Of a stretch of DNA of 64,000 nt, positions 661 through 56,088 are shown piece by piece. Under the pieces are notes generated by a model. It was given only the letters and a program-made list of their open reading frames with translations. It had not been told where the DNA came from and did not search any database. Made by a program: the position numbers and the translations under genes. Source of the stretch: an uncultured Methanosarcinales archaeon (GTDB taxonomy: Archaea; Nanobdellota; Nanobdellia; Woesearchaeales; CAYZNE01); the NCBI GenBank assembly GCA_964405295.1, contig CAYONI010000004.1:20698-84697 (forward strand). The letters are read 5' to 3'. Every line of letters starts with the position of its first letter. Positions within the stretch are counted from its first letter, which is position 1.

Positions 661-3600
661 ATGAGTTTTAGATCAGAAAAAAGAGGTTTAGGTATTTTAA
701 AGAGTGCAATTTTCTTAAAGGTTGCTATATTGTTTCTTTTAATATCTATTCTTAGTTTTAATGTTCTTTCAACTGAGTACTATACTACTAGTGCAGCACC
801 AGTAATTAGTATACTTTTTGATGAACAAATAAATCTTGATTCAATAACTGCGCAGGTTCTTTGCTTAGAGAAACAGGGGATTTGCTTTGATATTTACCAA
901 TCAGGAAATGTTACACAAACTCCTCAGATAGATGTGGCGCTTGAGAATAATAATCTAACCGTTCTTTATTCTCTTGGTCTTATTCCGAATGATAATTATA
1001 CTTTCCATACAACTGTTGAAGACGTAGTTGGTAATTCTCAATCATACGATCTTAGTTTCACAGTTGATGCGCCTTTAATGGATATCTCTGTTGTTTTACC
1101 TAATAATGCTTGGTCAAATGAAATACCTTTTGATGTAGCAATTTCTCCTGAATATAATAATTCTAACTGTTGGTATTTCCCAGGAAATATTCAACGGCCT
1201 CTAACCCCTGATGAAGGTTATACTTTCAATTTCACAAATATTGTTGATGGTGCTCGGTGGTTTTATATTTATGATATAACAAACAATACTGTTACAGATA
1301 CTTATCAAGTAGGGCAAAGCTTGCCTTTTTATGTCGCATGTAATGCAGGTGATGAAAACTATGGTTGGGCAGATTTAACTGTTTATTGGGATACAACTGC
1401 ACCAATTTATTCACTTGAATTTGATCCAAGCCCTTTAACTGATCTTGTTAATCGTATTGTTGATGTAACTGTTACATCTTCTCCTTATGGAAATGGAGAA
1501 AGTGCTGATGAGATTGGTTGTGAAATTGCAATTCTAATTGATAATGGAGCTAATATAACTTCTCCTGTATTTATTCCTTTTGATAGTGTTGGTGGTGATA
1601 TTTCTAAGATTGGTAACTATTCTCAAATTAACACACATGAACTTAATTTTGAAAATATTCCTATAACTGATTTTACTTCACATAGTTATCAATATAAAAT
1701 ACGTTGTAGAAATAAAGCAGGAACATTAGGGGATAATATTACTGAGGATTTAACTGTTCAACTTTCACCAGATTTTTCAATAACCCAAATCAGTCCTGAT
1801 AACTATGTTAATTCTGCAACAATTCCTGTTGAAGTTTTAACAAGTGTTGAAACAATTTGGTGTAATATTTCAAAAGATGGCTTCAATGAGTTAATGTTAA
1901 TAAACACTTCAACTAATAAAAATCATTATTATTATTTATCAAGTGTTTCTGAGGGGTCACATAGTTATGATATAGATTGTAAATCAACTTTTGGTTCTAA
2001 TGATCACTCAAGCATCTCATTCACTGTGGATAGAGTCTCGCCTGATAATGTATCTATAAATACTAATGATTATAGTTGTTCTCTGGCAGAGTTAAGTTTT
2101 AAGTTACATGCAGATGATGATCTATCAGGTGTATCTTATTTCAATTATACTATTACTGGTCCAGAATCAGAATTGATTGCTTCAGATTTGACAAGTGATA
2201 CAACAATAGAATATGATTACACACTTATAGAAAATGAGTCCTATATAATTAAGGTTGTCGCTGTAGATCGAGCTGGAAATCCAAGTTCAAGTGTGACAAA
2301 AACAATTGTTGCAACTGGGCCGGATCTTGTTGAATGTGACACAGTTTCTCCGACAATCAATTTCATTGATGAAAAAGAGCCTGGTGTGACAGTTGTTAAT
2401 ATAACTTGTTCAGATTCTCAGTCTGGATGTAGAGATAGTTTTGATTATAGTCTATTAAATAATCTTAGTGCAGATTGTACTTACTTAACTGCAGGAAGCT
2501 GGTCTACAACAACACAATTTTCTATATGGGAAGATACTAAGTTCTGTATAAGAGCTAAAGATTATAATGATAATGAAAGAGAAGATGATGAAATAATTAC
2601 GGTTACATTTAATGTTTCTACTCATTGTTCAAACGGGTTAATTGATTTTGATGAGTCAGATATAGATTGTGGGGGTACTGAATGTTTTGCTTGTGATGCT
2701 GGATCTGCTTGTTCAAGTGACGATGACTGTAGCACTAATTGGTGTAATAATGGTGTTTGTGATACTCCCGCTTGTGATGATACTATTTTAAATGGTCTTG
2801 AAACTGATGTTGATTGTGGTGGAAATTGTGATGGATGCGAAATTAATAAGACCTGTGTGTTAAATGATGATTGTTTAAGTTTTTGGTGTAATGAATCTGT
2901 TTGTGCAGCATCTTCTTGTGAAGATTATGTTGTCAATGGTCTTGAAACTGATGTTGATTGTGGTGGTCTTGAGTGTATGCCTTGTGATAATGGCCAGAAT
3001 TGTTTTGAAGATTTTGATTGTGTTTCTAATTATTGTAATTATGGTATTTGTGAAGAAATGATTCCTATTAATCCTATTGATGATGAAAAATTAAACATTA
3101 TCTCATTAATTCTTTTAATTTTGGGGATATTATTTATTCTTGTAGGTGTAGGTTATATTTTATATGAGCATTACTATCTTAAACCTAAAGAAACAACTAT
3201 TAGTACTGAAACGCATTTTGCACGTCCAGTTAAACATAAACTTTCTCCTGAAGAAATAAAAAGATTACATAAGAAAAGATTAATGATGAAAGAAAAGTTT
3301 AAGAAAAGGTCAAGTTCTATGAAAGATAAGTTTTCAACAAAGTTATCTACTTTTGATGAAGAAACTAAAGAAATAAAATCTGATAAAGATAAAGAGGAAT
3401 CAGAAAAAGCTAAGAAAGTTATGGAAAAGATTAGTAAGTTGTCTGATAAAGAAGTTACTCCTAAAGACAAGGAGTATGAAAAATTAGATAAAGGCTTAGA
3501 AGAAGATTATGTTGCGTTAGGAGATCTTAAAAAGAATGTTGTTGATAAACTTAAAGATGATCCTAAGTTTAATGATAAAGTTGCAGAGGATGTGTTTGCT

Positions 3601-4107
3601 GCACTTGATAAAATGCAATTAGGTGTTGATAAAAAAACCAAGATAAAAGATGATTATAAAGAACGTGAAAATTCTGACAAAAATTATGTTACTGAAGAAG
3701 ATTTTAAGAAGTTAGATGAAGTTATAAAAAAATCTAAAGAAGAAAAAGGTAAATCTGGAAAAATAATTGAGTCTAACAAGAAAGAACAACTTGTCTCTGT
3801 TCAGGATAAAGAAGATGTGTTTTCTGCTCTTGATGATCTTGCCTCAGGGTCTAAAGCTAAAAATAAGTCAGAGAAGGTTGATTTTTCTGCAAGAAAATTA
3901 TTTAATTCTGATGACTTAGTTAATTTATTTAAGAAAAAAGAGTTAAGTGCAGACGTTTTTAAAGTTATACTTTCTGAGTTATTAAATTCAGGCAAATTAA
4001 CAAAGGCTGATGTTTCTGGAATAGTATTTAGATTATTAGAACAAGATCTTCTTGAAAAAGATATTGCACATAAAATTTTAAAAGATTTAAAGTTAATAAA
4101 AGAATAA
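661..4107 (+). CDS. Giant type I membrane surface protein: Ig-like repeats, three Cys-rich modules, one TM helix and a long charged cytoplasmic tail
   Basis: 1148-aa ORF. The N-terminus is a basic stretch plus a hydrophobic helix (EKRGLGILKSAIFLKVAILFLLISILSF). About 640 aa follow that are beta-rich and sequon-rich, with recurring D-x-x-G-N strands (VEDVVGNSQ, AVDRAGNPS). Three Cys-rich modules lie at 2626-3051 and a TM helix (LNIISLILLILGILFILVGVGYILY) at about 3094-3165. The last ~310 aa form a K/E/D-rich tail. Confidence 0.85.
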   Translation: MSFRSEKRGLGILKSAIFLKVAILFLLISILSFNVLSTEYYTTSAAPVISILFDEQINLDSITAQVLCLEKQGICFDIYQSGNVTQTPQIDVALENNNLTVLYSLGLIPNDNYTFHTTVEDVVGNSQSYDLSFTVDAPLMDISVVLPNNAWSNEIPFDVAISPEYNNSNCWYFPGNIQRPLTPDEGYTFNFTNIVDGARWFYIYDITNNTVTDTYQVGQSLPFYVACNAGDENYGWADLTVYWDTTAPIYSLEFDPSPLTDLVNRIVDVTVTSSPYGNGESADEIGCEIAILIDNGANITSPVFIPFDSVGGDISKIGNYSQINTHELNFENIPITDFTSHSYQYKIRCRNKAGTLGDNITEDLTVQLSPDFSITQISPDNYVNSATIPVEVLTSVETIWCNISKDGFNELMLINTSTNKNHYYYLSSVSEGSHSYDIDCKSTFGSNDHSSISFTVDRVSPDNVSINTNDYSCSLAELSFKLHADDDLSGVSYFNYTITGPESELIASDLTSDTTIEYDYTLIENESYIIKVVAVDRAGNPSSSVTKTIVATGPDLVECDTVSPTINFIDEKEPGVTVVNITCSDSQSGCRDSFDYSLLNNLSADCTYLTAGSWSTTTQFSIWEDTKFCIRAKDYNDNEREDDEIITVTFNVSTHCSNGLIDFDESDIDCGGTECFACDAGSACSSDDDCSTNWCNNGVCDTPACDDTILNGLETDVDCGGNCDGCEINKTCVLNDDCLSFWCNESVCAASSCEDYVVNGLETDVDCGGLECMPCDNGQNCFEDFDCVSNYCNYGICEEMIPINPIDDEKLNIISLILLILGILFILVGVGYILYEHYYLKPKETTISTETHFARPVKHKLSPEEIKRLHKKRLMMKEKFKKRSSSMKDKFSTKLSTFDEETKEIKSDKDKEESEKAKKVMEKISKLSDKEVTPKDKEYEKLDKGLEEDYVALGDLKKNVVDKLKDDPKFNDKVAEDVFAALDKMQLGVDKKTKIKDDYKERENSDKNYVTEEDFKKLDEVIKKSKEEKGKSGKIIESNKKEQLVSVQDKEDVFSALDDLASGSKAKNKSEKVDFSARKLFNSDDLVNLFKKKELSADVFKVILSELLNSGKLTKADVSGIVFRLLEQDLLEKDIAHKILKDLKLIKE
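2626..3051 (+). repeat. Three tandem ~48-aa cysteine-rich modules (consensus C-x5-NG-x-ETDVDCGG-x2-C-x2-C-x5-C-x5-C-x4-C-x4-C) inside the 1148-aa gene
   Basis: The modules start at 2626, 2773 and 2917. An exact 32-nt repeat aatggtcttgaaactgatgttgattgtggtgg occurs at 2791-2822 and 2935-2966, a 144-nt period. Confidence 0.9.
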
Positions 4108-4108
4108 A

Positions 4109-4624
4109 ATGAATCGTAAAGCTGCAGTAAAACAAGTATTCACATTTTTAATGGTCGCAATATTAATAGGTTTAGTGTTTTTATTCGGTATAAAAGCTAT
4201 TGCAGGAATCATGAAAGATACTTGTGATGCAGATGTTGCTCTTTTCACAAAGCAAATTAATGAATTTGTTAATAAATATAATACTTATGGTTCAGATAGA
4301 GAAGAAAGAGTTATTCTTCCATGTGAACATTCTTTTGTGTGTTTTATTGATAAGGATATTATTGGTACACCAACAACGATTTTTCCAAATCCTGATATAG
4401 TAATTAATCCTATGATTGAACAGAGTATTCTTGCTAATGTTAGTTATAATATTTTTCTAATAAAAAATAATATCGCAACTCCTATTGGTTATTCAGATAA
4501 GTTAGTAGTAGGTGAGCCTTATAATTATCTTTGTATGCAACCAACAGGTAATAAGGTTGTAATAAGATTTGTTGGTAAGGGAAGAACAACAGAAGTAAAT
4601 TTGCCTCAATTAGGAGTGGTTTAA
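4109..4624 (+). CDS. Small helix-anchored protein, possible type IV pilin-like subunit (family not recognised)
   Basis: 171 aa. It starts 1 nt after the stop of the 1148-aa gene. The N-terminus MNRKAAVKQVFTFLMVAILIGLVFLFGI is a basic stretch followed by one hydrophobic helix. The globular part contains Cys. Confidence 0.45.
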   Translation: MNRKAAVKQVFTFLMVAILIGLVFLFGIKAIAGIMKDTCDADVALFTKQINEFVNKYNTYGSDREERVILPCEHSFVCFIDKDIIGTPTTIFPNPDIVINPMIEQSILANVSYNIFLIKNNIATPIGYSDKLVVGEPYNYLCMQPTGNKVVIRFVGKGRTTEVNLPQLGVV

Positions 4625-5641
4625 TTGTTTTTTCAAAAAAGAGCATTTACTATACAATTTAGTTGGATATTTATTTTAATAGTGGGATTTATGGTAATGC
4701 TTTTTGTTATAACTTCTATAAGTAAGCAGGGAGAGGTTTCAACATCAGATGTTAATGTTGAGATTCTACAAAATGTTGATTCAATTATTAGTACTTCTTG
4801 GCAAAGTGTTAACACTTTTAAAATTGTAAACACACCTAAAATAACTATTGAGTATATATGTGAAGATAATTATTCTGCCTATTCTGTTAATTCTAAGTTG
4901 CGTAGAGTAGATGATCTCATAATTTTTGCACCAAAACAAATTGACGGAAAAAAGATTTTTACATGGTCAAAAGAATATAAGATGCCAATGAAAATTGTTA
5001 ATGTTCTTTACTTAACTAATGAAAAACACAAATATATTTTTGTTAATTCTTCCACTAATAATGTAATGAGATTTTTATCTTCTAATTTTCCAGAAAATAT
5101 GACTTTTGAAACAGTTAATCCAGGATTTGATTTAGAAGATGGAAATTTTGATATGTATACAATTATTTCTACAGACGAAGATTATAATGGTGCTGGTGTT
5201 CCTGCATCTATCAGGAAAAAAACAAAAGTGGTGATAATAAATACTTCATCAGGAAATTATCAGAATGGTAATGTAAGTTTTTATTCTTTTAACAATGAAG
5301 GGCTTTTGGAGTTTGACGGAGAAGGTGTTTATCTTGATGAATCAACACTTTATGGTGCGATTTTTAGTAGTGGAATTTCTGATTATGAATGTACTATAGA
5401 TAAGTTAATGAGAAAGTCAAAGAATTTATATCAAATTTATCATAATGTTGCTGAAAAAGAACGAGATGCTTCTTCAAAAGCAATATGTATTTCAGCTTAT
5501 TATCCTGCGGTCATTGATATGCTAGTATACCTTAATGACTCAATTGATGCAAGGAATTATGAAGAGATTGTAATGGCAGGTTACAGTTTGGATGGTTCAA
5601 ATAAAAATCTAAGGAAATATGGGTGCCCTTTAATTTATTAA
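4625..5641 (+). CDS. Helix-anchored protein, possible pilin-like subunit (family not recognised)
   Basis: 338 aa. A TTG start lies directly after the TAA of the previous gene, with AGGAGTG about 7 nt upstream. The N-terminus is FFQKRAFTIQFSWIFILIVGFMVMLFVI. Confidence 0.45.
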   Translation: MFFQKRAFTIQFSWIFILIVGFMVMLFVITSISKQGEVSTSDVNVEILQNVDSIISTSWQSVNTFKIVNTPKITIEYICEDNYSAYSVNSKLRRVDDLIIFAPKQIDGKKIFTWSKEYKMPMKIVNVLYLTNEKHKYIFVNSSTNNVMRFLSSNFPENMTFETVNPGFDLEDGNFDMYTIISTDEDYNGAGVPASIRKKTKVVIINTSSGNYQNGNVSFYSFNNEGLLEFDGEGVYLDESTLYGAIFSSGISDYECTIDKLMRKSKNLYQIYHNVAEKERDASSKAICISAYYPAVIDMLVYLNDSIDARNYEEIVMAGYSLDGSNKNLRKYGCPLIY

Positions 5642-5642
5642 A

Positions 5643-6155
5643 ATGATTTCAATAAAAAGGTTTAGAAGGAAAGCGCAATTGCAAATGACTGAAAACATTG
5701 CAATAATTATGATAATTGTATTTATTCTAATATTTGGTTTTGTGTTTTATAGTAAGGTTCGTTCTGCATCTATTAAGGGTAAACTAAAAGAGTATTCTGA
5801 ACTTGATTTAGTTAAAGCTTCACAAACAATTTCCTCTTTGCCTGAGTTATCTTGTTCTCGAGAATCTTTAACAGATGTTGGCTGTATAAATAAGTTGAAG
5901 CTAGAAGCATTCATAGAGTTGGGTTTACAAGAGGAATATTATGAATATTACCGAGAGTTATTTGGTAAATCTAAAGTAACATTTAATTCAACGTTCCCTG
6001 ATGATACAATTAATATTGAATTATACAATAACCCTTTTGATGGTATTAATAATAAAGATTCAATTTTTATTCCTATAAATATTTTTGATCCAATAAATGA
6101 TACTGTTAATTTTGGTTATGTTCAAATAACTAAGTATACACAACCTTTAATTTAA
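5643..6155 (+). CDS. Small helix-anchored protein, possible pilin-like subunit (family not recognised)
   Basis: 170 aa, with a 1-nt gap to the previous gene. The N-terminus MISIKRFRRKAQLQMTENIAIIMIIVFILIFGFVFY has K-A-Q followed by an acidic residue and a hydrophobic helix. Confidence 0.45.
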   Translation: MISIKRFRRKAQLQMTENIAIIMIIVFILIFGFVFYSKVRSASIKGKLKEYSELDLVKASQTISSLPELSCSRESLTDVGCINKLKLEAFIELGLQEEYYEYYRELFGKSKVTFNSTFPDDTINIELYNNPFDGINNKDSIFIPINIFDPINDTVNFGYVQITKYTQPLI

Positions 6156-6156
6156 A

Positions 6157-6672
6157 ATGGCAGATAAAAAAAAATCTAAGTTTGGGCAAGTAGAAATAAT
6201 GGGTTTATTAATAGTTGTAATATTAGTTGTTGTGGTAATTTTTTTAGTTGTTAGTTTTAGTGCTAAAACTCCTCCAAGAAATATTCAAACAACATATATG
6301 AATGATCAAATGTCAACTGCATTTATTCTTGCTTTGCTTGATACGAGCACTGAGTGCGGTAATTCTGTAAGTATATCTGAAGTTATAGCTGATTGTGCTG
6401 CGTTTGACAGAATAAAGTGTCCTGGTGGTAATTCTTGCACTTATTTAAACGAATCCTTAGATGATATGTTTAACTCAACCCTAGTAGAGTGGGGTGTAGG
6501 ATTTGTATTTACCATGCATCATATATCCTTTGATAATCCTGGGCTAAATAATTTTACTTTTTCTCAGGGTTGTGGTTATGGATCGATTGCTCAGAGAGAA
6601 ACTTTTCAGATTATTCCTTTATGGCCTAGACCTGATGATGTTAAAGTTAGAATAAAGATCTGTGATAGTTAG
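6157..6672 (+). CDS. Small helix-anchored protein, possible pilin-like subunit (family not recognised)
   Basis: 171 aa, with a 1-nt gap to the previous gene. The N-terminus MADKKKSKFGQVEIMGLLIVVILVVVVIFLVV has K-x-G-Q-x-E followed by a hydrophobic helix. The globular part contains Cys. Confidence 0.45.
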   Translation: MADKKKSKFGQVEIMGLLIVVILVVVVIFLVVSFSAKTPPRNIQTTYMNDQMSTAFILALLDTSTECGNSVSISEVIADCAAFDRIKCPGGNSCTYLNESLDDMFNSTLVEWGVGFVFTMHHISFDNPGLNNFTFSQGCGYGSIAQRETFQIIPLWPRPDDVKVRIKICDS

Positions 6673-7947
6673 TTAATTACACTTCTCCCAAATATTATAT
6701 TGGTGTTTCTTGAAATACTCTGGAAGGTTTATAATATATATAATCATGATTACAAACCAGAATGGTGCCATAAATAATAATGGAATTAAGTGCCACATGG
6801 TGAATTTCTTCTCATACTTGATTATTGCAATTAAGAATAAAGGATAAGTGAGTAGTGTAACAATTATGCTTATTGCAACAAGAAAACTTAGTTCTATATT
6901 GCCATTAATTATGTTTGTAATCCATCTTATTACTCCTGCTATGGAGAACCATTCAATAAAATATCTTAACACTTCTCCACTAAAAATAACCCCCTTAGAA
7001 GAAAAATATAGTATGTATCCAGAGGTTATGTTATAGATTGTAACAATGCCCATGATTACTCCTTGGATATATGTAAAAAGCATTAATGGGAGAGAATAAA
7101 TATCTATCATCGTATTCCCTATCTGCATATGTTTCTTAAAAATATTAAGCCATCCTTTTGCAAATCTTGTTCTTTGTTTTCCAAATCCTTTAACTGTATA
7201 TGGCATATTTGTTTCTGTTACACTCTTTTCACTAAACGCGATTTTGTAGCCTTTTCTTATTAGTCTAATTGTTACATCAACATCTTCTGAAAACCCTTTT
7301 GTGCTAAAGCCATTAATCTTTTCAAGAGCCTTCCTTTTATACATGCTAAGTGGCCCTGGTGTAACAATATTTGCGTGTATCTTGCTGAAAAGCATTCTAA
7401 TAAGTGAATTATATAGTTGTTCAATGTGGACCCATAGGCTTATGAACTTCTTTTTGTTTTTTAATTTAATAACTCCACATGCACCTGCATATTCTTTTGG
7501 AGATAGTACTTTTGCAAGCTCCACAAGAGAATCTTTCGCGATTATACTATCTGCATCTACAATAGCAATTAATTCACTTTGTGTATATTTTAATGCAGTG
7601 TTTATCGCATTTGATTTGCCGCCATGGTTTAATTTAATTAATTTTACAGATACATTACTTGGTTTTCCTTTGATTGCTTTTTTTATTTCTAATATTGTTT
7701 TATCTTTGCTTCCATCATCAATAACGATTATATCTTTCTTGCCGTTGAAATCTGCATTAATAGCTGCAATCAAACAATCTTTAATATATGGTTCTTCATT
7801 GTACGCAGGTATTATTATTGTAAGAGATTTGCCTGTTTTGCCAGGCTTTTTTTTCTTAGGTTTAATAAAAACAAGAACATAGTAAGATAAAACTACAAGA
7901 AAAAAGATTACTGTTATTATGTTTGCAAGTATTGCTAAAATACTCAT
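6673..7947 (-). CDS. Membrane-integrated family 2 glycosyltransferase, processive synthase type (PgaC/IcaA/NodC-like)
   Basis: Motifs seen are IIIPAYNEE, VIDDGSKD, GGKSNAIN, IVDADS, SEDVDVT and QRTRFAKGW (a Q-x-x-R-W variant), with TM helices on both sides. ATG 7947 lies 1 nt after the upstream stop. The ORF track starts at TTG 7956. Confidence 0.8.
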   Translation of the reverse strand: MSILAILANIITVIFFLVVLSYYVLVFIKPKKKKPGKTGKSLTIIIPAYNEEPYIKDCLIAAINADFNGKKDIIVIDDGSKDKTILEIKKAIKGKPSNVSVKLIKLNHGGKSNAINTALKYTQSELIAIVDADSIIAKDSLVELAKVLSPKEYAGACGVIKLKNKKKFISLWVHIEQLYNSLIRMLFSKIHANIVTPGPLSMYKRKALEKINGFSTKGFSEDVDVTIRLIRKGYKIAFSEKSVTETNMPYTVKGFGKQRTRFAKGWLNIFKKHMQIGNTMIDIYSLPLMLFTYIQGVIMGIVTIYNITSGYILYFSSKGVIFSGEVLRYFIEWFSIAGVIRWITNIINGNIELSFLVAISIIVTLLTYPLFLIAIIKYEKKFTMWHLIPLLFMAPFWFVIMIIYIINLPEYFKKHQYNIWEKCN

Positions 7948-7948
7948 T

Positions 7949-9205
7949 TTATACAAAGTCCGTGTTCTTTATTTTAGGTGTACAGAACCAAGATAGTTTT
8001 TGATTAAACAATGCTTTGAATGCAGCATATGCGATAGCAAAAACAAGAACTATGCTAACAGTGAAACATCCTCTTACAAGGTACCAGTATTCGTTTAGCA
8101 TATGTCTTTTATACATCATAAATCCTCCCATTAAAAGGAACCCAAATGTGTAGAAGAACCTCAAGAAGAATGTTGCCACGTCTGACATATTAAATAAACT
8201 TGGCTCTCCAACAAACCACCCTACAAAGCCAAAAATGGTCATGGTTATAACCACTGGTGCAATTAAATGAACCATTGTTTGAAACATTATCATTGCCTGT
8301 TGTTTCCAATTAAGTTTACCAGAAAATAATATGTCCTGATAGTTATCTAGAAAAACTCTCATTCCACCATAGGTCCATCTCATCTGTTGTTTAATATAAG
8401 ATTCCCATGTATCTGGAACTTCACTTGGTTGATCTAACCCTTTAACATAAACACTTTTATAACCTTTCATTAGAATTCTAACGCTAAGTTCAGAATCTTC
8501 TGTTATACTATTAGGGTTCCATCCGCCTACTTCTTCAATACATTTTTTTCTTATAGCCCCTCCTGTTCCACAGAAGAATACTGTATTTATTTTATTACTA
8601 ATGGGCATGATAATTGTGTGAAATATTGTCAACGAATATGCTGCAAATCTTGTAATTATATTTGTATCTTTGTTTGAAAAGCCTTGGCCTCCTTGAACAA
8701 TTGCAATTTTTGGATCAGCAAATGGAGGAATAACTTTTTTTAGAAAGTGTGCTTCGGGTTCCCAGTCTGAGTCAAAGATGCAAATTATTTCTCCTTTTGT
8801 TTGGTCCATTGCATCTTTGCAAGCACCTGGCTTATACCCTTGCCTATTTGTTCTGTGTATATATTTAACAAATCCAGGATTATCATCTGCATACTTTTTT
8901 AGAAGTGCTTGTGTGTTTGTATTTGTGCTATCATCAAGAATCATTACTTCAAATCTATCTTTTGGATAGTCTAGTTTCATACAGCCTTCAATACATCTTG
9001 CTGCAATAGGATCATTAAACGAAGGAACCTGGACACTTACAAAAGGCCACTCTTTAAACTTGTATGTTTTAGAATCAACAAAGTTTTTCTTTTTGTCAAC
9101 AAAAATATTTATTATTGACATAGTAAGAAATACCAATGACAGAAAGATCATTGGAATTAGTGCAATGTTGTATATGAACATTGTAATTGCTTGAGCAGTA
9201 GCCAT
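7949..9205 (-). CDS. Membrane-integrated family 2 glycosyltransferase, processive beta-glycan synthase type (cellulose-synthase/CslA-like)
   Basis: Motifs seen are VQVPSFND, ILDDSTN, IFDSDW, TEDSELS and QQMRWTYGG (Q-x-x-R-W), with N- and C-terminal TM helices. Confidence 0.8.
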   Translation of the reverse strand: MATAQAITMFIYNIALIPMIFLSLVFLTMSIINIFVDKKKNFVDSKTYKFKEWPFVSVQVPSFNDPIAARCIEGCMKLDYPKDRFEVMILDDSTNTNTQALLKKYADDNPGFVKYIHRTNRQGYKPGACKDAMDQTKGEIICIFDSDWEPEAHFLKKVIPPFADPKIAIVQGGQGFSNKDTNIITRFAAYSLTIFHTIIMPISNKINTVFFCGTGGAIRKKCIEEVGGWNPNSITEDSELSVRILMKGYKSVYVKGLDQPSEVPDTWESYIKQQMRWTYGGMRVFLDNYQDILFSGKLNWKQQAMIMFQTMVHLIAPVVITMTIFGFVGWFVGEPSLFNMSDVATFFLRFFYTFGFLLMGGFMMYKRHMLNEYWYLVRGCFTVSIVLVFAIAYAAFKALFNQKLSWFCTPKIKNTDFV

Positions 9206-17040: not shown

Positions 17041-18300
17041 TTATTTTAGAATTTCTATTATTTTATCTAACTCTAGAATCTCATCTGTCTTATCAAACAT
17101 ATTCTTCAACTTAAACCTTCCATCTTTTAACTCATTCTCACCAACAAATAAAGCAAAAGGGATCTTTTGAGCTTCAACATACTTCATGTTTTTAGGGAAC
17201 TTTCTATTCATTATATCAAGGTCTGTATTTATTCCTGCATTCCTAAATTGTTTTGCAATTTCCAGACATTCTTTTTGAACTTCTCCAATGGGAACAATAA
17301 ATACTTTTGTAACAGTTTGTTTTAGTTCGATTTTATTTTGTAATTTAAGAACTTCCAAGATTGGCTCTAAACCAAAAGCAATTCCGACTGCAGGGTAATC
17401 TTTATTGTTTCCTGCATAGTCTCCAATCATATTATCATATCTTCCTCCTCCTCCGAGTGAGAAAGAAAATATATTTAGGTCTTTCATTTTAATCTCAAAA
17501 ACATTTCCTGTGTAATATGCTAATCCTCTTGCAAGTTCTGGTGCAAACTTTACACCTTGCACTAAAGAAAATATTTCTTTTAACTCTTTTAGTCCTTCAT
17601 TGTCTGGAAGAATTTTAGAATAGTAATCAAGTTTTTCCCTGTTGTCACCAGGCACATCTAACAGTCTTAATATTTCATCTGCATTCTCAAATCCTTTGTC
17701 TATTAATTCTTGTTTAACTTTTTCAGAACCAAGTTTATCTAGTTTGTCAACTGTTTGAAGAACGCTTTCTATCTTGTTTTTGTTAACTCCTGCTTTTTCA
17801 ATTATTGCAGAAAGTAATAATCTATTGTTAACAAGAATGTTAACATCTAAATTTATTTTTGTAAAAAAATCTTTTGCCAAAGAAAGAATTTCTGCATCTG
17901 CAATCATTTTGTTTGAGCCGACTGTGTCAACATCGCATTGCCAGAATTCTCTGTATCTTCCAAGTTTGATTGGTCCGTCTCTGAATACTCTGCCTATTTG
18001 ATACCTTTTGAAAGGCATTTTAAGGTTTGGATTCATTGCTACGAATCTTGAGAATGGGACTGTTAGATCGAATCTTAGAGCTAGTTCTCTTTCACCTTGA
18101 TCTTTGAATCTGAAAACTTCTTTTAGTATTTCTGCGCCAGAGTCTTTTGTTGCTAGTGTTTCAAATCTTTCTATGATTGGTGTTTCTAGTGGATTGAACC
18201 CATATGATTCAAATATTGTTTTTAGAGTGCTAACTAGGTAATTCCTTGCAATTTTCTCGTTTGGAGCAAAGTCTCTTACTCCTTTTGCTAATTGTACCAT
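17041..18300 (-). CDS. hisS: Histidine--tRNA ligase
   Basis: The N-terminus is KGVRDFAPNE. Class II motif 2 reads RVFRDGPIKLGRYREFWQCD. GGGGRYD is also present. Confidence 0.9.
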   Translation of the reverse strand: MVQLAKGVRDFAPNEKIARNYLVSTLKTIFESYGFNPLETPIIERFETLATKDSGAEILKEVFRFKDQGERELALRFDLTVPFSRFVAMNPNLKMPFKRYQIGRVFRDGPIKLGRYREFWQCDVDTVGSNKMIADAEILSLAKDFFTKINLDVNILVNNRLLLSAIIEKAGVNKNKIESVLQTVDKLDKLGSEKVKQELIDKGFENADEILRLLDVPGDNREKLDYYSKILPDNEGLKELKEIFSLVQGVKFAPELARGLAYYTGNVFEIKMKDLNIFSFSLGGGGRYDNMIGDYAGNNKDYPAVGIAFGLEPILEVLKLQNKIELKQTVTKVFIVPIGEVQKECLEIAKQFRNAGINTDLDIMNRKFPKNMKYVEAQKIPFALFVGENELKDGRFKLKNMFDKTDEILELDKIIEILK

Positions 18301-18353: not shown

Positions 18354-18428
18354 TGGGGCGGCTGGCGGGAGTTGAACCCGCCCCTGAGGTTCCACAGACC
18401 TCAATGCTACCGATACACTACAGCCACC
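18354..18428 (-). tRNA. tRNA-His (anticodon GUG) with genome-encoded G-1 and 3' CCA
   Basis: I folded the cloverleaf by hand. G-1 pairs with C73. The acceptor stem is GTGGCTG/CAGCCGC and the D loop is ATCGGTA. The anticodon stem GAGGT/ACCTC carries the loop CTGTGGA. The variable loop has 4 nt. The T arm is GCGGG-TTCAACT-CCCGC and the 3' end is CCCA. Confidence 0.9.
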
Positions 18429-18597: not shown

Positions 18598-18607
18598 TTT
18601 TATAAAT
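18598..18607 (+). promoter_or_regulatory. TATA box (ttttataaat) for the SLT-LysM gene
   Basis: It lies 22 nt upstream of ATG 18629, implying a leaderless transcript. Confidence 0.5.
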
Positions 18608-18628: not shown

Positions 18629-19672
18629 ATGAGTATACGTTACAATGGAGAATTGATAGATCGTGCTAGTAATAAGATAAATATATACTACCATGGGCAG
18701 TTGATTAGTAGTGGTAGGTCAACAGCTGTAGCTATAGCTAAGCCTAAATTAAAGAATAAGGGAAGGTATTTTCTTGCAGGGTTAGCTTTATGGGCATCTA
18801 TTTCATGGTTTGCTAAATTAAACAAGCAAAGCGTTGTTCCAAATTTTTCAAACAACTTAGAATCTGAATTAAATGAAAAAGATATTACTAAACTCAATCT
18901 TGAAGATAAAGTTTTAACTCAGGAACCACAAACAAAAATAATTACCGAAAATTATAACTTGCTTGATGATTTAGTAAAAAAGAAGGTATCTGAATATAAA
19001 GCAAATCCAACAATAGTAAATAGCCTAAAGGGTTTTTTCTCAGAACTATCTAGATATGATGATGAAATAATTAAAGCATCGAAATTGCATAATTCTACAG
19101 TAAATTTTCTTTATGCTCAATCTTCACAAGAATCTGAAGGAGATTTGAGAGCAGCATCCAAAGCAGATGCAAAGGGGCTTATGCAGTTTATGGAATCTAC
19201 TGGTAAAGAGATGGGGTTAAGAATAGATAATTTTATTGATGAAAGATATTCTCCTAAAACAATAGTTAAAGGAGCTGAGTATCTTAGGAAGCATGTTAAA
19301 TCTGATAAAGATTATGTTTTGCTTGCAGCTTATAATGCTGGACCAACTAAAATTAATAAAATTGTTAAGAAGTATGGAGATGATTGGGAAATTTTTTCAA
19401 AGCATATTCCAAAAGAAACTCGTCTGTATATAGTAAGAACTAAAGCAAGAGAGCAATTATTAAATGAATCTTTTGAATTTGAAAAAAGAAAACTTTTTTC
19501 TCAAGAAATTTCAGAATCAGATAGGTACATAGTTCAAAAGGGGGACAATATTTATACAATTGCAAAGAATAATAAAATTCCTCTAAAAGAAGTAAAAAGA
19601 CTAAATCCTACAATAAGGGATTATAGTAAAATTTATGTTGGGTTAGAATTAAACATTCCTAAAAGTTCTTAA
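18629..19672 (+). CDS. Membrane-anchored lytic transglycosylase (SLT/goose-lysozyme-like domain) with a C-terminal LysM domain
   Basis: The TM anchor is YFLAGLALWASISWFAKL. SLT motifs are AQSSQESEGDLRAASKADAKGLMQFMESTG and AAYNAGP. The LysM domain reads YIVQKGDNIYTIAKNNKIPLKEVKRLNPTIRDYSKIYVGLELNIP. Confidence 0.85.
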   Translation: MSIRYNGELIDRASNKINIYYHGQLISSGRSTAVAIAKPKLKNKGRYFLAGLALWASISWFAKLNKQSVVPNFSNNLESELNEKDITKLNLEDKVLTQEPQTKIITENYNLLDDLVKKKVSEYKANPTIVNSLKGFFSELSRYDDEIIKASKLHNSTVNFLYAQSSQESEGDLRAASKADAKGLMQFMESTGKEMGLRIDNFIDERYSPKTIVKGAEYLRKHVKSDKDYVLLAAYNAGPTKINKIVKKYGDDWEIFSKHIPKETRLYIVRTKAREQLLNESFEFEKRKLFSQEISESDRYIVQKGDNIYTIAKNNKIPLKEVKRLNPTIRDYSKIYVGLELNIPKSS

Positions 19673-29886: not shown

Positions 29887-30525
29887 ATGAAAAAAACGAC
29901 AATCGCAATTATTACATTAATTATTATATCTTTTATTATTGCAATATATGTGTATCCTATTTTTCCAGAAGAAGTTGCAAGTCATTGGAATTCCAAAGGA
30001 GAAGTTAATGGTTATATGCCAAAGTTTTGGGGAATATTTTTGATGCCTCTTATGTCACTTTTTATGTTTGGGTTATTTTTATTCTTACCAAAGCTTGATC
30101 CACTAAAAAAGAATGTTAAGAAATTCAAAGGATTTTATAATGAATTTATTTTGTTTATGATTGTGTTCTTTTTCTATGTTTTTATATTAACAATATTATA
30201 TAATTTAGAAATAATTTTTAACATGACTTATGCAATTCTTCCTGCAATCGCAATTTTATTTTATTTTATTGGGGTTCTACTAGAAAAAAGCAAAAGAAAT
30301 TGGTTTATTGGAATAAAAACTCCTTGGACTTTATCATCAGATTATGTTTGGGATAAAACACATAAATTAGGGTCTAGATTATTCAAAATAATTGCTGCGC
30401 TTGTATTAATAGGTTTATTTTATCCAGATCAAGGGATTGTCTTGTTTATTATTCCTTTGATTGCAATGGTAATTTGGTTATACGTTTATTCTTATGTTGT
30501 TTATAAAAAAGAGAAATCTAAATAA
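29887..30525 (+). CDS. SdpI/DUF1648-like polytopic membrane protein
   Basis: HWNSKGEVNGYMPKFWG follows the first TM helix. There are about 6 TM helices. The family call rests on pattern recognition only. Confidence 0.5.
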   Translation: MKKTTIAIITLIIISFIIAIYVYPIFPEEVASHWNSKGEVNGYMPKFWGIFLMPLMSLFMFGLFLFLPKLDPLKKNVKKFKGFYNEFILFMIVFFFYVFILTILYNLEIIFNMTYAILPAIAILFYFIGVLLEKSKRNWFIGIKTPWTLSSDYVWDKTHKLGSRLFKIIAALVLIGLFYPDQGIVLFIIPLIAMVIWLYVYSYVVYKKEKSK

Positions 30526-30552
30526 TAGGGTTATTGGAATTACAGAACAGAA

Positions 30553-31188
30553 ATGAAAAAAAGAAAACATAGATTAAGATTTTTGTTAATTCTAATAATT
30601 GTGATATTTATTTGGCAATTGATAGTTTCTGTAAGTCAATTTGATGAAGTTTTTTCTGATTTGTTATCCAACCAAGTAGAGGAAGCAGAACTTGTCTGCT
30701 ATGGTGATAATAAAACTTGTCAGATAGAGAAAGAGTTGAATAAGTTTACTAACTTGAAAAGACAAGAAAATAACTTATCAAACCTAATTTTGGATTCTGA
30801 ACTTTCAAATATTGCCAGAGATCATAGTGAGGACATGATTTCTCGGAACTTTACAGCTCATTTGAATCCTGATGGTTTAGATTCAACTGCAAGAGGAGAA
30901 TTGAATAATTATAAATGTGTTAAAGTTCATGGTCTTAAAATGGAGACCGGGATTGCAGAAAATATTTATGAAACAACTATGTTTGAGAAAGGAGTAATTC
31001 TTGGTGATGGCGAAAATTCTTTTTTCACTTGGTATGGAATGGATGACATCGCAACTAAAGCAGTTGATGGTTGGATGAGTAGTGATGGTCACAGAGAGAA
31101 TTTGCTGAATGCAGGTTACACAAGCCAAGGTCTTGGTGTTGCAATCTCTGAAGATGATCGAGTTCTAATTACAGAAGTGTTTTGTTAA
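30553..31188 (+). CDS. Secreted or anchored CAP/SCP (YkwD-like) domain protein
   Basis: It has an N-terminal anchor. Motifs seen are ARDHSEDMISRNFTAHLNPDG, GENI and WMSSDGHRENLLNAGYTSQGLGVA. Confidence 0.75.
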   Translation: MKKRKHRLRFLLILIIVIFIWQLIVSVSQFDEVFSDLLSNQVEEAELVCYGDNKTCQIEKELNKFTNLKRQENNLSNLILDSELSNIARDHSEDMISRNFTAHLNPDGLDSTARGELNNYKCVKVHGLKMETGIAENIYETTMFEKGVILGDGENSFFTWYGMDDIATKAVDGWMSSDGHRENLLNAGYTSQGLGVAISEDDRVLITEVFC

Positions 31189-36457: not shown

Positions 36458-38767
36458 GTGAGCATGGTTAATTCAAGTTTTGGTAAGTGTTATTATTCAG
36501 TTGATAAAGAAGGGGAATCTGTAGTTCTTAGTGTAGATTGTGATTCTTACCTAAAAGTCCCAAGTTTAGAAGATGATCCTGTTCTTATGTCTCATACTTG
36601 TGATCAATTAATAAAAAATAAGAATGTTTCAAAAATAAGGTTTTCTCAGAAAAGAGATTATGAATATGGTTACGAAGAAACAAAACTTCTCAAAGAAATA
36701 GCTTTTTTTTATAATGATCTAAGTAGAAAGCCAGAGCTTTTTGCAATACAGTCGTATGAAGGAAGGTCTCATCTTGCGTCTGTTAGTAGGTGGTTGATTG
36801 AAATAAAGAATGTTGTTATAGTTCAATTAAAATCTGATCCTATAGGGGCTTTTGTTCACTTAAAGCATATGCACAGAGATATGAAAATTGCTAATGATAA
36901 AGCATTGACCCTTGATGAAAGAAATGAGATTGAGAGAGTTATGCTTTTTGTTGAATCGCTAATTTCTCAGTTAGAGCAGTTGCAATTAATTAAAATAGTT
37001 AAAGATGGGCTTGCAGGTCATGAGCCTGGTGATAGATCCATTTACAAGAAAGTTTTCAATCCTATAATTAAACCAGATTTTATGTTTAGTAAGTTAATGG
37101 CTCTTTACCCAAAGAATTCTGTAGAAAAAGCAAATTATAGTATTGGTGATAATGAGGTTGTTCTTTTTGATATTCCTGATAGTGTTCAACCAATGTACCA
37201 TGTTCTTCCGCCTGAATTTAAACTAAATGAAGAAGAGTATGAAATTTTGGATTTGGCAAGAAAAATAATGTCAGAGCATAAGCCTAAAGAGCAAGAATTT
37301 GTTGACCCAGAGAGAATGCGAGAAGTGTTTTTTAATGTTGGTCATGATCTTATACTTGATTTAGCAAATTACAAGAATATAACCCTAAATAAAGCACAAG
37401 CAAGAGATTTAACAAAAATACTTGTAAGATATACTGTAGGTTTTGGATTAATAGAAGTTTTATTAGAAGATCCAAAAGTTCAAGATGTTGCAATAAATGC
37501 GCCATATGGTAGTGGGCCTATATACCTTGTTCATGAAGATTTTGATGAATGTATAACAAATATTATCCCTACAGAAGCTGATGCAGAATCTTGGGCTTCA
37601 AAACTTAGAATGATTTCCGGGAGAAGTTTGGATGAGGCAAATCCTATTTTAGATACTGAAATATTAATTCCTGGTGTTGCTAATGCAAGAGTGTCTGTTG
37701 TTACACAGCCACTTTCCCCTGTTGGTCTTTCATATTCTTTCAGAAGACAAAGAGATAAGCCTTGGACAATTCCACTATTTATTAAAAATAGAATGCTTTC
37801 TCCTCTTGCAGCAGGGTTATTAAGTTTCTTTATCGATGGTAATAGAACAATATTGGTTGCAGGAACAAGAGGTTCTGGTAAAACTTCTTTTTTAGGAAGT
37901 GTACTAATAGAAATTATGAGAAAGTTTAGGATAATAACTGTTGAAGATACTTTAGAATTACCAACTCCTGCACTCAGAAGATTGGGGTATGATGTTGTTG
38001 CGCTTCAGGTTGCTGCTGCATTATCCAGAGACAGCACAGAATTTACTGCAACAGAAGGTATAAGGTCAACTCTAAGACTTGGAGATTCTGCACTATTTGT
38101 TGGGGAAGTTAGAAGCAAAGAGGCTGTTGCTCTTTTTGAAGCAATGAGAGTTGGTGCAGGTGCAAATGTGGTTGGTGGAACTTTTCACGCGGATAGTGCT
38201 TTTGGTATTTATGATCGATGTGTAAACGCAATTGGAATTGCAAATAACTCTTTTAAGGCTTTGGATCTTGCAGTAATTGTAAATCCTATTAAGAGTGCAG
38301 ATGGTCTTCATAGATGGAGAAGGGTAACTTCTATTACTGAAGTAAGAAAAGATTGGAAATCTGATCCTCTATTGGAACATGGTTTTGTTGATTTAATGAA
38401 GTATTCAACTGAAACAGATATGCTTGAACCAACTGACGCACTTATTAATGGAGATTGCCAGCTTATAAAAAATATTGCAGGTAATATTAAAGAATGGGCT
38501 GGTGATTGGGATGCAGTTTGGGAAAATATTCAGTTAAGAGCAGATACAAAAGAATATCTTGTTAAAATTTCTATTGATAATAATCTTCCAGGATTATTAG
38601 AAGCAGAGTTTGTTATTCTTGCAAATGATGAATTTCATAAAACCATTAATGATGTTAAAAAACTTGGTAAAGATATTGATTCTGGTAGAATCTTAACAGT
38701 TTGGAAACTTTGGCTTGATAAAGAAGTTCATAAGATTAAAATGTTAAAAGATAGTGAGAATATTTAA
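36458..38767 (+). CDS. Type II/IV secretion-family ATPase (archaeal FlaI/PilB-like) with long terminal extensions
   Basis: Motifs seen are Walker A GTRGSGKTS, Asp box IITVEDTLEL, Walker B LFVGEVRSKEA and His box GGTFHADSA. The protein is 769 aa. Confidence 0.85.
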   Translation: MSMVNSSFGKCYYSVDKEGESVVLSVDCDSYLKVPSLEDDPVLMSHTCDQLIKNKNVSKIRFSQKRDYEYGYEETKLLKEIAFFYNDLSRKPELFAIQSYEGRSHLASVSRWLIEIKNVVIVQLKSDPIGAFVHLKHMHRDMKIANDKALTLDERNEIERVMLFVESLISQLEQLQLIKIVKDGLAGHEPGDRSIYKKVFNPIIKPDFMFSKLMALYPKNSVEKANYSIGDNEVVLFDIPDSVQPMYHVLPPEFKLNEEEYEILDLARKIMSEHKPKEQEFVDPERMREVFFNVGHDLILDLANYKNITLNKAQARDLTKILVRYTVGFGLIEVLLEDPKVQDVAINAPYGSGPIYLVHEDFDECITNIIPTEADAESWASKLRMISGRSLDEANPILDTEILIPGVANARVSVVTQPLSPVGLSYSFRRQRDKPWTIPLFIKNRMLSPLAAGLLSFFIDGNRTILVAGTRGSGKTSFLGSVLIEIMRKFRIITVEDTLELPTPALRRLGYDVVALQVAAALSRDSTEFTATEGIRSTLRLGDSALFVGEVRSKEAVALFEAMRVGAGANVVGGTFHADSAFGIYDRCVNAIGIANNSFKALDLAVIVNPIKSADGLHRWRRVTSITEVRKDWKSDPLLEHGFVDLMKYSTETDMLEPTDALINGDCQLIKNIAGNIKEWAGDWDAVWENIQLRADTKEYLVKISIDNNLPGLLEAEFVILANDEFHKTINDVKKLGKDIDSGRILTVWKLWLDKEVHKIKMLKDSENI

Positions 38768-38787
38768 TTCTTACATAGAGGTGTAGC

Positions 38788-49401: not shown

Positions 49402-50646
49402 ATGAAATTCAAATTTTCTCATATTGCAGATTGCCACATTGGGGGCTGGAGAGATTCAAGAATGAAAGAGCTTTCAGTAGAAGCATTTGATTTTGCAATA
49501 ACTAAATCTATTGAGAATAAAGTTGATTTTGTTCTTATTGCAGGGGATTTATTTAATAGTGCAATTCCAGGTATTGATGCAATAAAGTCTGTTGTGTCGT
49601 CGCTAAATAAATTAAAGCAAAATACTATCCCCTGTTATTTTATTGCAGGAAGTCATGATTTCTCCCCCAATGGAAAAACTTTTCTTGATGTAATAGAAGA
49701 GGCAGAATTGGGTATTAACGTCTATAAGCCTTCACAGAAAGATAGCAAAATGAGATTAAAGTTTACTATTGATCCGAAAACAGGTGTAAAGATTGCAGGT
49801 ATTCTCGGACGAAAAGGTCAGCTTGATTCTGAAGATTATGATGCTCTTGATTATACTGCTTTAGAAAAAGAGGATGGTTTTAAAATATTTATGTTTCATG
49901 CTTCGATAACTGAGATGAAACCAAAAGGGTTAGAAATGATGCAATCATCGTCGGTGTCAATACTACCCGTTGGTTTTGATTATTATGCAGGTGGTCATGT
50001 TCATATTGTTGAAAGGTATAATTCTGATAAATATAAAAATGTTATTTACCCAGGGCCGCTATTTCCAAATTCTTTTTCAGAGTTTCAAAAACTAAAGAAG
50101 GGTGGATTTTATATTGTAAATGTTGATGAAGAAATAACTTTAGAGCGAATTGATATTAAGCTAAAACCGGTTATTGTTTTTGAGTTTAATGTAGATAATG
50201 TGTCTGTTGAAACATTAAATAATGATATGAAACAGCGAGTTAAAAAAGGAACTTTTGCTGATGCAATTGTTTTACTACGTGCATATGGAACTGTCAGTTC
50301 AGGTAAAATCTCTGACATTAATTTTAATGAAACAATTCGTTCTATATATGAGAAAGATGCGTATTTCGTTATGAGAAATACTTCTAAATTATTTGTTGAA
50401 GATATGGAAACAAAAAACATTGACTCAGATTCTTCTGATGAAATAGAAAGAGATTTGATTGTCGAGAACCAGGGGCAAATCAAAAACAGTTTTAAAGATG
50501 AAACTCAAGCTATAATGAAAATAATGAATGCCGCTTCTTCAGAGAAGCTTGAAGGAGAAAAAGTTTATGATTATGAATCTAGAATCTTATCACAAATAGA
50601 CCAAGCAATCGAGGAGAACAAAGAAAAAGAAGTAAAAGGTGATTAA
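49402..50646 (+). CDS. mre11: Mre11-like DNA repair nuclease (calcineurin-type metallophosphoesterase)
   Basis: Phosphoesterase motifs appear in order: HIADCHIG, IAGDLFN, IAGSHDF, MFHAS, GGHVHI. Confidence 0.7.
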   Translation: MKFKFSHIADCHIGGWRDSRMKELSVEAFDFAITKSIENKVDFVLIAGDLFNSAIPGIDAIKSVVSSLNKLKQNTIPCYFIAGSHDFSPNGKTFLDVIEEAELGINVYKPSQKDSKMRLKFTIDPKTGVKIAGILGRKGQLDSEDYDALDYTALEKEDGFKIFMFHASITEMKPKGLEMMQSSSVSILPVGFDYYAGGHVHIVERYNSDKYKNVIYPGPLFPNSFSEFQKLKKGGFYIVNVDEEITLERIDIKLKPVIVFEFNVDNVSVETLNNDMKQRVKKGTFADAIVLLRAYGTVSSGKISDINFNETIRSIYEKDAYFVMRNTSKLFVEDMETKNIDSDSSDEIERDLIVENQGQIKNSFKDETQAIMKIMNAASSEKLEGEKVYDYESRILSQIDQAIEENKEKEVKGD

Positions 50647-55811: not shown

Positions 55812-56088
55812 TACTTGGTGCTAGGCCGGGTGGTTCTTCCTCACCTGTTACTGCAAACGGGAGTTGGTAGGGTCGAAGCCTGGAAGGCGGCATTATTTGG
55901 ATTTAGGAGTCTTTTTGCGGACTGAGAAGCTTTGTCTCTTCATATCGAGGGTGTACTGAATCAGGTCAGATCTTGATCGAAGCAGCCTTAAGGTATGTTT
56001 CCGGTGTTGGGGAGGTTGCAGGGTGGAGGAAGTAAAAGGGTTGCTCTTATTTCTTTATAGTGTCCACTTCCAGGTGTGCACCAACCTT
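55812..56088 (+). ncRNA. Signal recognition particle RNA (7S/SRP RNA)
   Basis: It is a GC-rich island in AT-rich DNA. The 5' TTGGTGC (55815-55821) pairs with the 3' GCACCAA (56078-56084). CAGGTCAGATCTTGATCGAAGCAGCCTTAAGG matches the conserved helix-8 core (compare E. coli 4.5S CAGGUCAGGUCCGGAAGGAAGCAGCCAAGG). The ends are approximate. Confidence 0.8.

Follow-up and report, generated by a model that had tools for sequence, protein, structure and literature searches.

The stretch of DNA analyzed here, referred to below as the window, comprises 64,000 nucleotides (positions 20,698 to 84,697 of the forward strand) of contig CAYONI010000004.1 in assembly GCA_964405295.1, which carries a Woesearchaeales lineage in GTDB. 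Its features are collected in Table 1, and the gene of interest is a 347-residue open reading frame (ORF) whose product combines an SLT domain with a LysM domain. Pfam SLT (PF01464) matched residues 147–250 with 65.6 bits (gathering cut-off 21.3, E = 3.9e-18), and Pfam LysM (PF01476) matched residues 300–344 with 37.7 bits (gathering cut-off 20.9, E = 1.9e-9), which was the single LysM in the protein. A preliminary description of this locus, made from the sequence alone, had listed SLT motifs and a LysM string, which are present as QESEGD...S...AKGLMQF, AAYNAGP (residues 233–239) and YIVQKGDNIYTIAKNNKIPLKEVKRLNPTI...YVGLELNIP; both readings were confirmed, since in the hidden Markov model (HMM) comparison the two domains scored far beyond chance. 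The top NCBIfam model was murein transglycosylase D (MltD, NF008050), for which 53.4 bits were obtained against an equivalog cut-off of 508. This indicates that the protein is not an orthologue of enterobacterial MltD but a distant family member lacking LysM2–4. The top sequence match in the PDB was 8RHE, the MltD of Pseudomonas aeruginosa (PaMltD), which the family profile matched with E = 4.8e-38 over a span extending from the helices ahead of the catalytic Glu to the first LysM. A lipobox was absent from the protein, and a transmembrane signal anchor is predicted in its place. As far as the sequence tells, the protein is a minimal unit of the MltD catalytic domain and LysM1, without the mobile LysM2–4. 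Upstream of the gene, the element TTTTATAAAT fits an archaeal TATA promoter, from which a leaderless or very short-leader mRNA would be transcribed.

Table 1. Positions of the SLT/LysM gene, its predicted parts and nearby features in the window.
Feature	Position	Strand	Evidence or remark
TATA-box-like element TTTTATAAAT	18598..18607	+	Centered ~26 nt upstream of ATG; candidate archaeal promoter; sequence read directly
SLT/LysM ORF, 347 aa, ATG start, TAA stop	18629..19672	+	Complete; predicted MltD-like (family 1D) lytic transglycosylase, tethered to the membrane and carrying a single LysM
Residues 1–46, predicted cytoplasmic tail, K/R-rich end KPKLKNKGR	18629..18766	+	Disordered in model
Residues 47–64 (YFLAGLALWASISWFAKL), predicted signal-anchor transmembrane helix, N-in/C-out	18767..18820	+	Hydropathy, flank charge, modeled helix 46–64, family layout
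Residues 65–111, low-complexity disordered tether	18821..18961	+	Model, divergence
Residues 112–290, catalytic domain: extra N-terminal helices (112–154) and SLT/GH23 lysozyme-like core	18962..19498	+	Pfam, AlphaFold, Foldseek, profile
E168-S169, catalytic acid/base Glu and family-1 "ES" motif (PaMltD E144-S145)	19130..19135	+	Alignment
G183-L-M-Q186, clamping-loop motif II (PaMltD G159-L-W-Q)	19175..19186	+	Alignment
A234-Y-N-A-G238, motif III (AYNAG)	19328..19342	+	Alignment
Y267, predicted to orient the catalytic Glu (PaMltD Y249)	19427..19429	+	Alignment; role from PMC11327851
Residues 298–345, single LysM aligned with PaMltD LysM1	19520..19663	+	Pfam, model, profile
Convergent neighbor, 231 aa	19669..20364	-	4-nt overlap with the SLT stop codon; unmatched in Pfam, NCBIfam and PHROG
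L11, archaeal-type, 240 aa	16296..17018	+	Archaeal model 206 bits (cut-off 162); bacterial model 108 bits (cut-off 142), failed
HisRS	17041..18300	-	Flanks the SLT/LysM gene and is divergent from it
tRNA-His (GTG)	18354..18427	-	53 nt upstream of HisRS, same strand
Family 2 glycosyltransferase (GT2) synthase genes	6673..7956 and 7949..9205	-	10 kb from the SLT/LysM gene, opposite strand

The hallmarks of PaMltD were mapped onto the protein through the 8RHE profile alignment, for which a chain-to-residue offset of +55 was applied. E168 was invariant in all 38 aligned diverse family members, and G183 and Q186 were conserved in at least 90% of the family, while the W of motif II was replaced by M. 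The context of the catalytic Glu read in the preliminary description thus holds after proper alignment, in which E168 falls on PaMltD E144. The structure was modeled by AlphaFold (AF2) on the 38-sequence family alignment, which gave a predicted local distance difference test (pLDDT) score of at least 94 over residues 110–347, a helix at 46–64, and disorder in segments 1–45 and 65–110. Two helices (112–125 and 127–154, pLDDT of at least 96) were modeled ahead of the catalytic helix 158–169, at the end of which E168-S169 is located. The LysM, whose modeled elements (strand 298–301, helices 308–314 and 319–325, and strand 340–343) form a beta-alpha-alpha-beta fold, was obtained with a pLDDT of at least 91 within one confident body (predicted template-modeling score, pTM, of 0.69) and was profile-aligned to the LysM1 region of PaMltD. 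A Foldseek search against the PDB gave PaMltD (8RHE/8RHF/8RHI) for all of the top six matches, with E from 1e-9 to 4e-8 and a template-modeling score of up to 0.65 on the target, over about 242 columns of about 275 target residues that cover the catalytic domain and LysM1; Slt, MltF, MltE and MltC followed behind. In PaMltD, Y249 hydrogen-bonds and orients the catalytic Glu, and LysM1 is the LysM that is packed against the catalytic domain (PMC11327851). MltD of P. aeruginosa and Escherichia coli is hence the closest known match in both sequence and structure, sharing with the window protein the ES motif, the GL(W/M)Q clamping loop, AYNAG, the Glu-orienting Tyr and the extra N-terminal helices, which in family 1D lengthen the active-site cleft, together with a LysM aligned to LysM1 and a membrane anchor followed by an unstructured tether of about 45 residues. 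The two differ in that their identity is only about 20–33%, that the window protein has one LysM instead of four and a predicted transmembrane helix instead of a lipidated Cys, and that the unusual P141 of PaMltD is missing from it.

The N-terminal region was examined for its hydropathy and flanking charge. The hydrophobic segment FLAGLALWASISWFA exhibited a Kyte–Doolittle (KD) value of 1.66 over 15 residues and 1.05 over 19, and its flank KPKLKNKGR has a net charge of +5; the first 16 residues are an extension that is not present in the orthologues. When 59 family members were compared, a segment with KD17 of at least 1.5 was located upstream of the catalytic domain in 44 of them, and the N-terminal flank was the more positive one in 52. 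The median tether length across the family was 45 residues, as against 43 in the lipid-anchored PaMltD (PMC11327851). The preliminary description had placed a transmembrane anchor at the N-terminus and both domains outside the cell. Such an anchor is probable and its layout recurs across the family, though it is marginal in the window protein itself, and the exposed, outward-facing topology is made plausible by the hydropathy, the flank charge and this recurring layout. An N-in signal anchor of this kind would hold the enzyme at the cell exterior, on a flexible tether that reaches about 15 nm at most.

The archaeal nature of the contig was evident from genes spread along the window. An archaeal signal recognition particle (SRP) RNA above the Rfam gathering score was located at 55814–56085, and a thermosome was detected with 585 bits. 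Further archaeal-signature proteins in the 64 kb were Nre, an RPA-type ssDNA-binding protein, XPD helicase, Trm1, TYW2/Trm5 and an archaeal-type ProRS, and an Rpb4-like protein, archease and RtcB were also encoded. The genes flanking the SLT/LysM gene were those stated in the preliminary description, namely L11 of the archaeal type, HisRS and tRNA-His. The latter two form an apparent unit of a tRNA with its cognate synthetase, divergent from the SLT/LysM gene. The L11 protein carries a charged C-terminal extension of about 80–100 residues past the archaeal model (1–158 of 164 positions matched) and weakly matches the NCBIfam model "L11/unknown domain fusion protein"; its orthologues in two related loci (L001 and L012) are likewise 240 residues long. 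The nearest named relatives of the thermosome, with 63–67% identity, all belong to Candidatus Woesearchaeota, Nanoarchaeota or the DPANN group, and a closer clade was found at 77–94% identity, so that the thermosome sequence places the contig in the Woesearchaeota/Nanoarchaeota (DPANN) radiation. The genome is present in marine and salt-lake metagenomes. A chimeric assembly, or a bacterial contig binned by mistake, could be proposed from the nearest homologues outside the family, which are bacterial MltD proteins of about 30–35% identity, and nothing else speaks for it. This was refuted on three counts: the same 64 kb holds the SRP RNA and, spread over its length, more than ten proteins typical of archaea; the identical gene context was recovered in independent assemblies and sequencing runs; and synteny is kept in divergent archaeal relatives. 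Its probability is thus negligible, and the preliminary description, which had named a mis-bin as unlikely, was right in this respect.

The inheritance of the gene was examined in related genomes. An identical protein with unchanged neighbors was found on nine contigs from independent assemblies, and a search of a 5.8-billion-protein index gave only three close relatives (76%, 49% and 48% identity). In the genomes holding the 76%, 49% and 46% orthologues the gene occupied the same place, within the syntenic block RPA-L21e-Rpb4-GAPDH-CSD-L11-HisRS-SLT/LysM-methyltransferase-aminotransferase-TYW2-EamA-XPD. The thermosome of the genome with the 46% orthologue was 80% identical to that of the window. 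This indicates that the SLT/LysM protein is fast-evolving yet retained, which is expected for a surface protein. When compared with the closest orthologue, the catalytic domain exhibited 89% identity and a ratio of nonsynonymous to synonymous substitution rates (dN/dS) of 0.10 at a dS of 0.57, which is not saturated, and the tether exhibited 57% identity and a dN/dS of 0.47. The conserved synteny and the dN/dS of about 0.10 in the catalytic core together argue for a functional, vertically inherited gene and against mis-binning, insertion in recent times or decay into a pseudogene; on this comparison of sequences, it is a functional and vertically inherited part of the archaeal clade. The convergent neighbor that overlaps its stop codon has a 283-residue orthologue in L001 with a faint aldose-epimerase match only, and the loci with the 49% and 46% orthologues lack it, which indicates no tie to the SLT gene.

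These data also bear on the idea that the protein is a catalytically silent adhesin, a decaying remnant of horizontal transfer, or a viral or proviral endolysin. For the last of these, it is of note that the SLT domain matched endolysin and tail-lysin families of PHROGs with up to 79.5 bits; these matches, however, span the generic SLT core only, whereas the MltD match includes the N-terminal helices and LysM. The gene lies in conserved synteny with L11, HisRS, tRNA-His and a methyltransferase, with no phage genes and a uniform G+C of about 0.31 along the window, and a phage origin was rejected on the grounds of the core-only matches and this housekeeping synteny. A silent protein or remnant is hard to reconcile with catalytic residues that are all invariant in the family and with the dN/dS of 0.10 in the core, so that we regard the whole idea as very improbable. 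Specialized SLT lysins of phages and secretion systems (for example T7 gp16 and the PHROG 669/2013 tail lysins) do share the SLT core and use it to break into another cell through its murein, which makes them a possible functional analogy for an attacking enzyme; they lack the LysM1-type docking and the N-terminal MltD helices, and the window gene is chromosomal and lies in a housekeeping context.

The wider family was collected by an exhaustive profile search, which gave 33,446 hits at E of 1e-3 or less. About 55 representatives of 230–490 residues matched in one stretch that runs from the helices ahead of SLT through the SLT core to a lone LysM. In a neighbor-joining (NJ) tree of the catalytic core, which was unbootstrapped, carries no support values and is used descriptively only, this small single-LysM family separated from the bacterial multi-LysM MltD proteins, and the clade of the window protein was sister to a group with P0026, P0027, P0029, P0030, P0031 and P0032. 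On the SLT-core HMM the small family and bacterial MltD were likewise set apart in score; this gap is partly circular, as the HMM was built from the small family. P0027 adjoins an archaeal Nre gene, and P0032 (locus L069) shares a neighborhood of GrpE-DnaK-(DnaJ)-OLD-family ATPase with P0060 (locus L011), which carries the NCBI label "[archaeon]". Judging from these contexts, at least this part of the small family looks DPANN-archaeal, and there are signs that the compact form is common to other DPANN lineages. Several members have lipobox- or Tat-like N-termini and could be bacterial, and the contexts of P0026, P0029, P0035 and P0043 are too short for a domain-of-life call. In the loci of two of these, both distant members of the family (L016 2–2950 for P0026 and L019 2–1971 for P0043), a gene for an H+-translocating pyrophosphatase lies directly upstream of the SLT gene on the same strand; the window has none. 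Giant surface proteins were observed beside the SLT gene of L069, one of 1,333 residues (M4-peptidase-like) and one of more than 2,368 residues (CLIPPER). A scan of GTDB species representatives with a 4-sequence family alignment gave only bacterial MltD-like loci. With a tighter alignment, the JGI metagenomes yielded two family members, L020 (80%) and L021 (42%), and the remaining matches were ordinary bacterial multi-LysM MltD lipoproteins, mostly on contigs with a G+C of 0.39–0.69.

Enzymes of this general type have been reported for DPANN archaea before. Castelle et al. (2021) described lytic transglycosylases in Woesearchaeota and Pacearchaeota, with Rinke (2013) and Castelle (2015) cited as previous records, and proposed for them a role in binding or breaking down the walls of bacteria. 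Vigneron et al. (2022; PMC9723730) found GH23 lytic murein transglycosylases in five Woesearchaeota metagenome-assembled genomes and proposed a "vampiristic" lifestyle on bacteria, and lytic transglycosylases were further reported for DPANN of oxygen-deficient zones (mBio 2024; PMC10936187). A 2026 preprint on complete Nanobdellota genomes did not mention these enzymes. The earlier proteins (fam00969 of Castelle 2021, GH23 of Vigneron 2022 and AR20 of Castelle 2015) likewise contain SLT/GH23 domains, are predicted to be extracellular, come from Woesearchaeota/Pacearchaeota-type hosts and were given the same role on bacterial walls; they were described as large, up to 3,000 residues, whereas the window protein has 347 residues in a compact arrangement of transmembrane helix, tether, catalytic domain and LysM. 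The same two-domain architecture was listed as "LysM+SLT" by Strock et al. (2025, PLoS Biol), whose S2 table has about ten Nanoarchaeota genomes, mostly marine Woesearchaeales (families BS150m-G63 and GCA-2686295; order SCGC-AAA011-G17), as well as Micrarchaeota and Helarchaeales. So far as that class can be judged from the table, the window protein fits it by its Woesearchaeales-type archaeal genome, by LysM and SLT in one protein, and by an export that its signal anchor suggests. Genomes GCA_054000255.1, GCA_964445995.1, GCA_016783785.1 and GCA_043817405.1, recovered here, are not among the S2 entries that were compared. The accessible text of Strock et al. reports that bacteria were killed experimentally by other archaeal peptidoglycan hydrolases, and gives no biochemical test of a LysM+SLT protein, the enzymes it names being of other types such as an M23 peptidase. 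The novelty implied by the preliminary description was hence overstated, given this tabulation for marine Woesearchaeales, while its suggestion that the enzyme acts on the wall of a bacterial neighbor appears reasonable and has already been published for DPANN. The genomic observation thus repeats those of Castelle 2015/2021, Vigneron 2022 and Strock 2025, and the addition made here is modest: the assignment to family 1D as an MltD catalytic domain–LysM1 unit with transmembrane anchor and tether, its vertical inheritance within a conserved housekeeping block, the purifying selection on its catalytic core, and the signs of the compact form in other DPANN lineages.

Taken as a whole, the product of the gene is fairly likely to be a functional, surface-displayed MltD-type (family 1D, GH23) lytic transglycosylase of a marine DPANN archaeon, acting most likely on bacterial peptidoglycan. 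Its topology, enzymatic activity, substrate and biological role would be connected as follows. The signal-anchor helix (N-in) would hold the enzyme in the archaeal membrane, and the disordered tether of about 48 residues would give the ectodomain (residues 112–347) its reach of about 15 nm or less. The LysM would dock on the catalytic domain and lengthen the glycan-binding groove, in which E168 would serve as the acid/base, with its orientation set by Y267, to cleave the beta-1,4 bond between N-acetylmuramic acid (MurNAc) and N-acetylglucosamine (GlcNAc), forming 1,6-anhydroMurNAc. The peptidoglycan of touched bacteria, either host or prey, or peptidoglycan debris would be the substrate, and the purpose may be attachment, wall breaching or scavenging. 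The housekeeping role of MltD in wall turnover would be impossible for the window protein, because its archaeon is taken to have neither murein nor a periplasm. The 64-kb window and the relatives' syntenic loci of about 17 kb yielded no gene for murein or pseudomurein synthesis (Mur ligase, MraY, MurG, PBP or SEDS). For an archaeon without murein of its own, the peptidoglycan of contacted bacteria or debris is the most economical substrate.

It could be argued that the enzyme is an autolysin which remodels a murein-like wall made by the cell itself through acquired bacterial mur genes. DPANN genomes do keep several bacterial pathways (Castelle 2021), and an enzyme of self-maintenance might be encoded as this one is, by a conserved core gene in synteny with housekeeping neighbors; the loci just mentioned, however, hold none of the genes that such a wall would call for. 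No archaeon is known to make murein. In addition, pseudomurein producers are noted by Strock et al. to be essentially devoid of archaeal peptidoglycan hydrolases, and this autolysin is considered very improbable. In a related version, to which we give a chance that is hardly less slim, the protein would be an autolysin or remodeler of some undescribed self-built envelope of the GlcNAc/MurNAc type, produced for instance via processive GT2 synthases, instead of an antibacterial weapon; the vertical inheritance of its gene, and its place as a core gene in synteny with housekeeping genes, would then be explained.

An enzyme or adhesin directed at chitin or another GlcNAc polymer has more in its favor, though we still hold it to be unlikely. 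Its ligand would be chitin or an exopolymer from the GT2 synthases of the archaeon itself. LysM is able to bind chitin (Strock 2025), chitotetraose occupies subsites +1 to +4 of PaMltD, which also accepts substrates without stem peptides (PMC11327851), and the metagenomes that hold the organism are from marine and salt-lake settings, where chitin is abundant. All close relatives in sequence and structure are nevertheless murein lytic transglycosylases. Lytic transglycosylases of family 1 are not known for a turnover of chitin. As for an exopolymer, the two processive-type GT2 genes of the window weakly resemble PgaC, NodC and BcsA, but their scores stayed under every NCBIfam equivalog cut-off (PgaC 124/422, NodC 87/550 and CelA 154/699), and the second is most similar to cellulose synthase. 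Linkage of GT2 and SLT genes was not seen in the fetched loci: none is adjacent in L003 and L012, L012 has its GT2 elsewhere, and L001 ends before the region. The link to a GT2 polymer of the window, offered as an alternative in the preliminary description, was consequently left unsupported by the distance, the opposite strand and scores far below the cut-offs, and it was rejected for want of linkage and specificity.

Several points weigh against an action on bacterial peptidoglycan. The survey of mur genes covers 64 kb, so a murein-like polymer of the archaeon's own may be encoded elsewhere in the genome. The LysM and the groove of MltD bind chitin oligomers as well, so by analogy murein may be one of several possible ligands. 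The membrane anchor is probable, not certain, as its hydrophobic segment is short (KD of 1.05 over 19 residues). A tether of about 15 nm or less places the murein behind an intact diderm outer membrane out of reach, which restricts the targets to monoderm or wall-exposed bacteria, to debris, or to cells whose outer membrane is breached by other factors. According to the abstract of PMC11291902, all DPANN cultivated so far have archaeal hosts and none has a bacterial one. Finally, a search for RNA-seq runs holding the SLT/LysM gene found none.

Other features of the window lie farther from this gene. On the plus strand, 661–6672 holds a 1,148-residue protein followed by four tightly packed ORFs (171, 338, 170 and 171 residues); none of the five had a Pfam or NCBIfam match, and they may form an uncharacterized surface or appendage operon. 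An unusually long (769 residues) FlaI/TadA-type secretion ATPase and a 746-residue protein without a family match are encoded at 36458–41028 (+), about 17 kb from the SLT gene, and are candidate parts of a machine resembling a type IV pilus or an archaellum. The 1,421-residue protein at 42994–47259 (-), which combines right-handed beta-helix/NosD repeats with an acidic repeat rich in cysteine, is likely one of the giant surface proteins that are common among DPANN. At 29887–31188 (+), an SdpI/DUF1648 membrane protein adjoins a CAP (cysteine-rich secretory protein/PR-1-like) domain protein, and CAP is uncommon in archaea. Long antisense or shadow ORFs were also observed in L11 (16289–16966, -), a GT2 gene (7301–7882, +), the beta-helix protein (45710–46141, +) and a phosphoesterase (50109–50483, -), which are most likely spurious products of AT-rich sequence.

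The type of host used by the abundant aquatic lineages of the Woesearchaeota/Pacearchaeota type, and whether they live on or prey on bacteria, is a question that rests on hints from gene content. The SLT/LysM protein offers a convenient handle on it, since it has a small, confidently folded ectodomain of 236 residues, a null control in E168Q, and a conserved single-copy gene in the clade. If it cleaved or bound particular bacterial sacculi, this would be the first biochemical support for an interaction between a DPANN archaeon and a bacterium, and it could indicate the type of the partner, either monoderm or diderm. The enzyme may be a wall-breaching tool of a true episymbiosis of DPANN on bacteria, a lifestyle that has never been demonstrated in culture.

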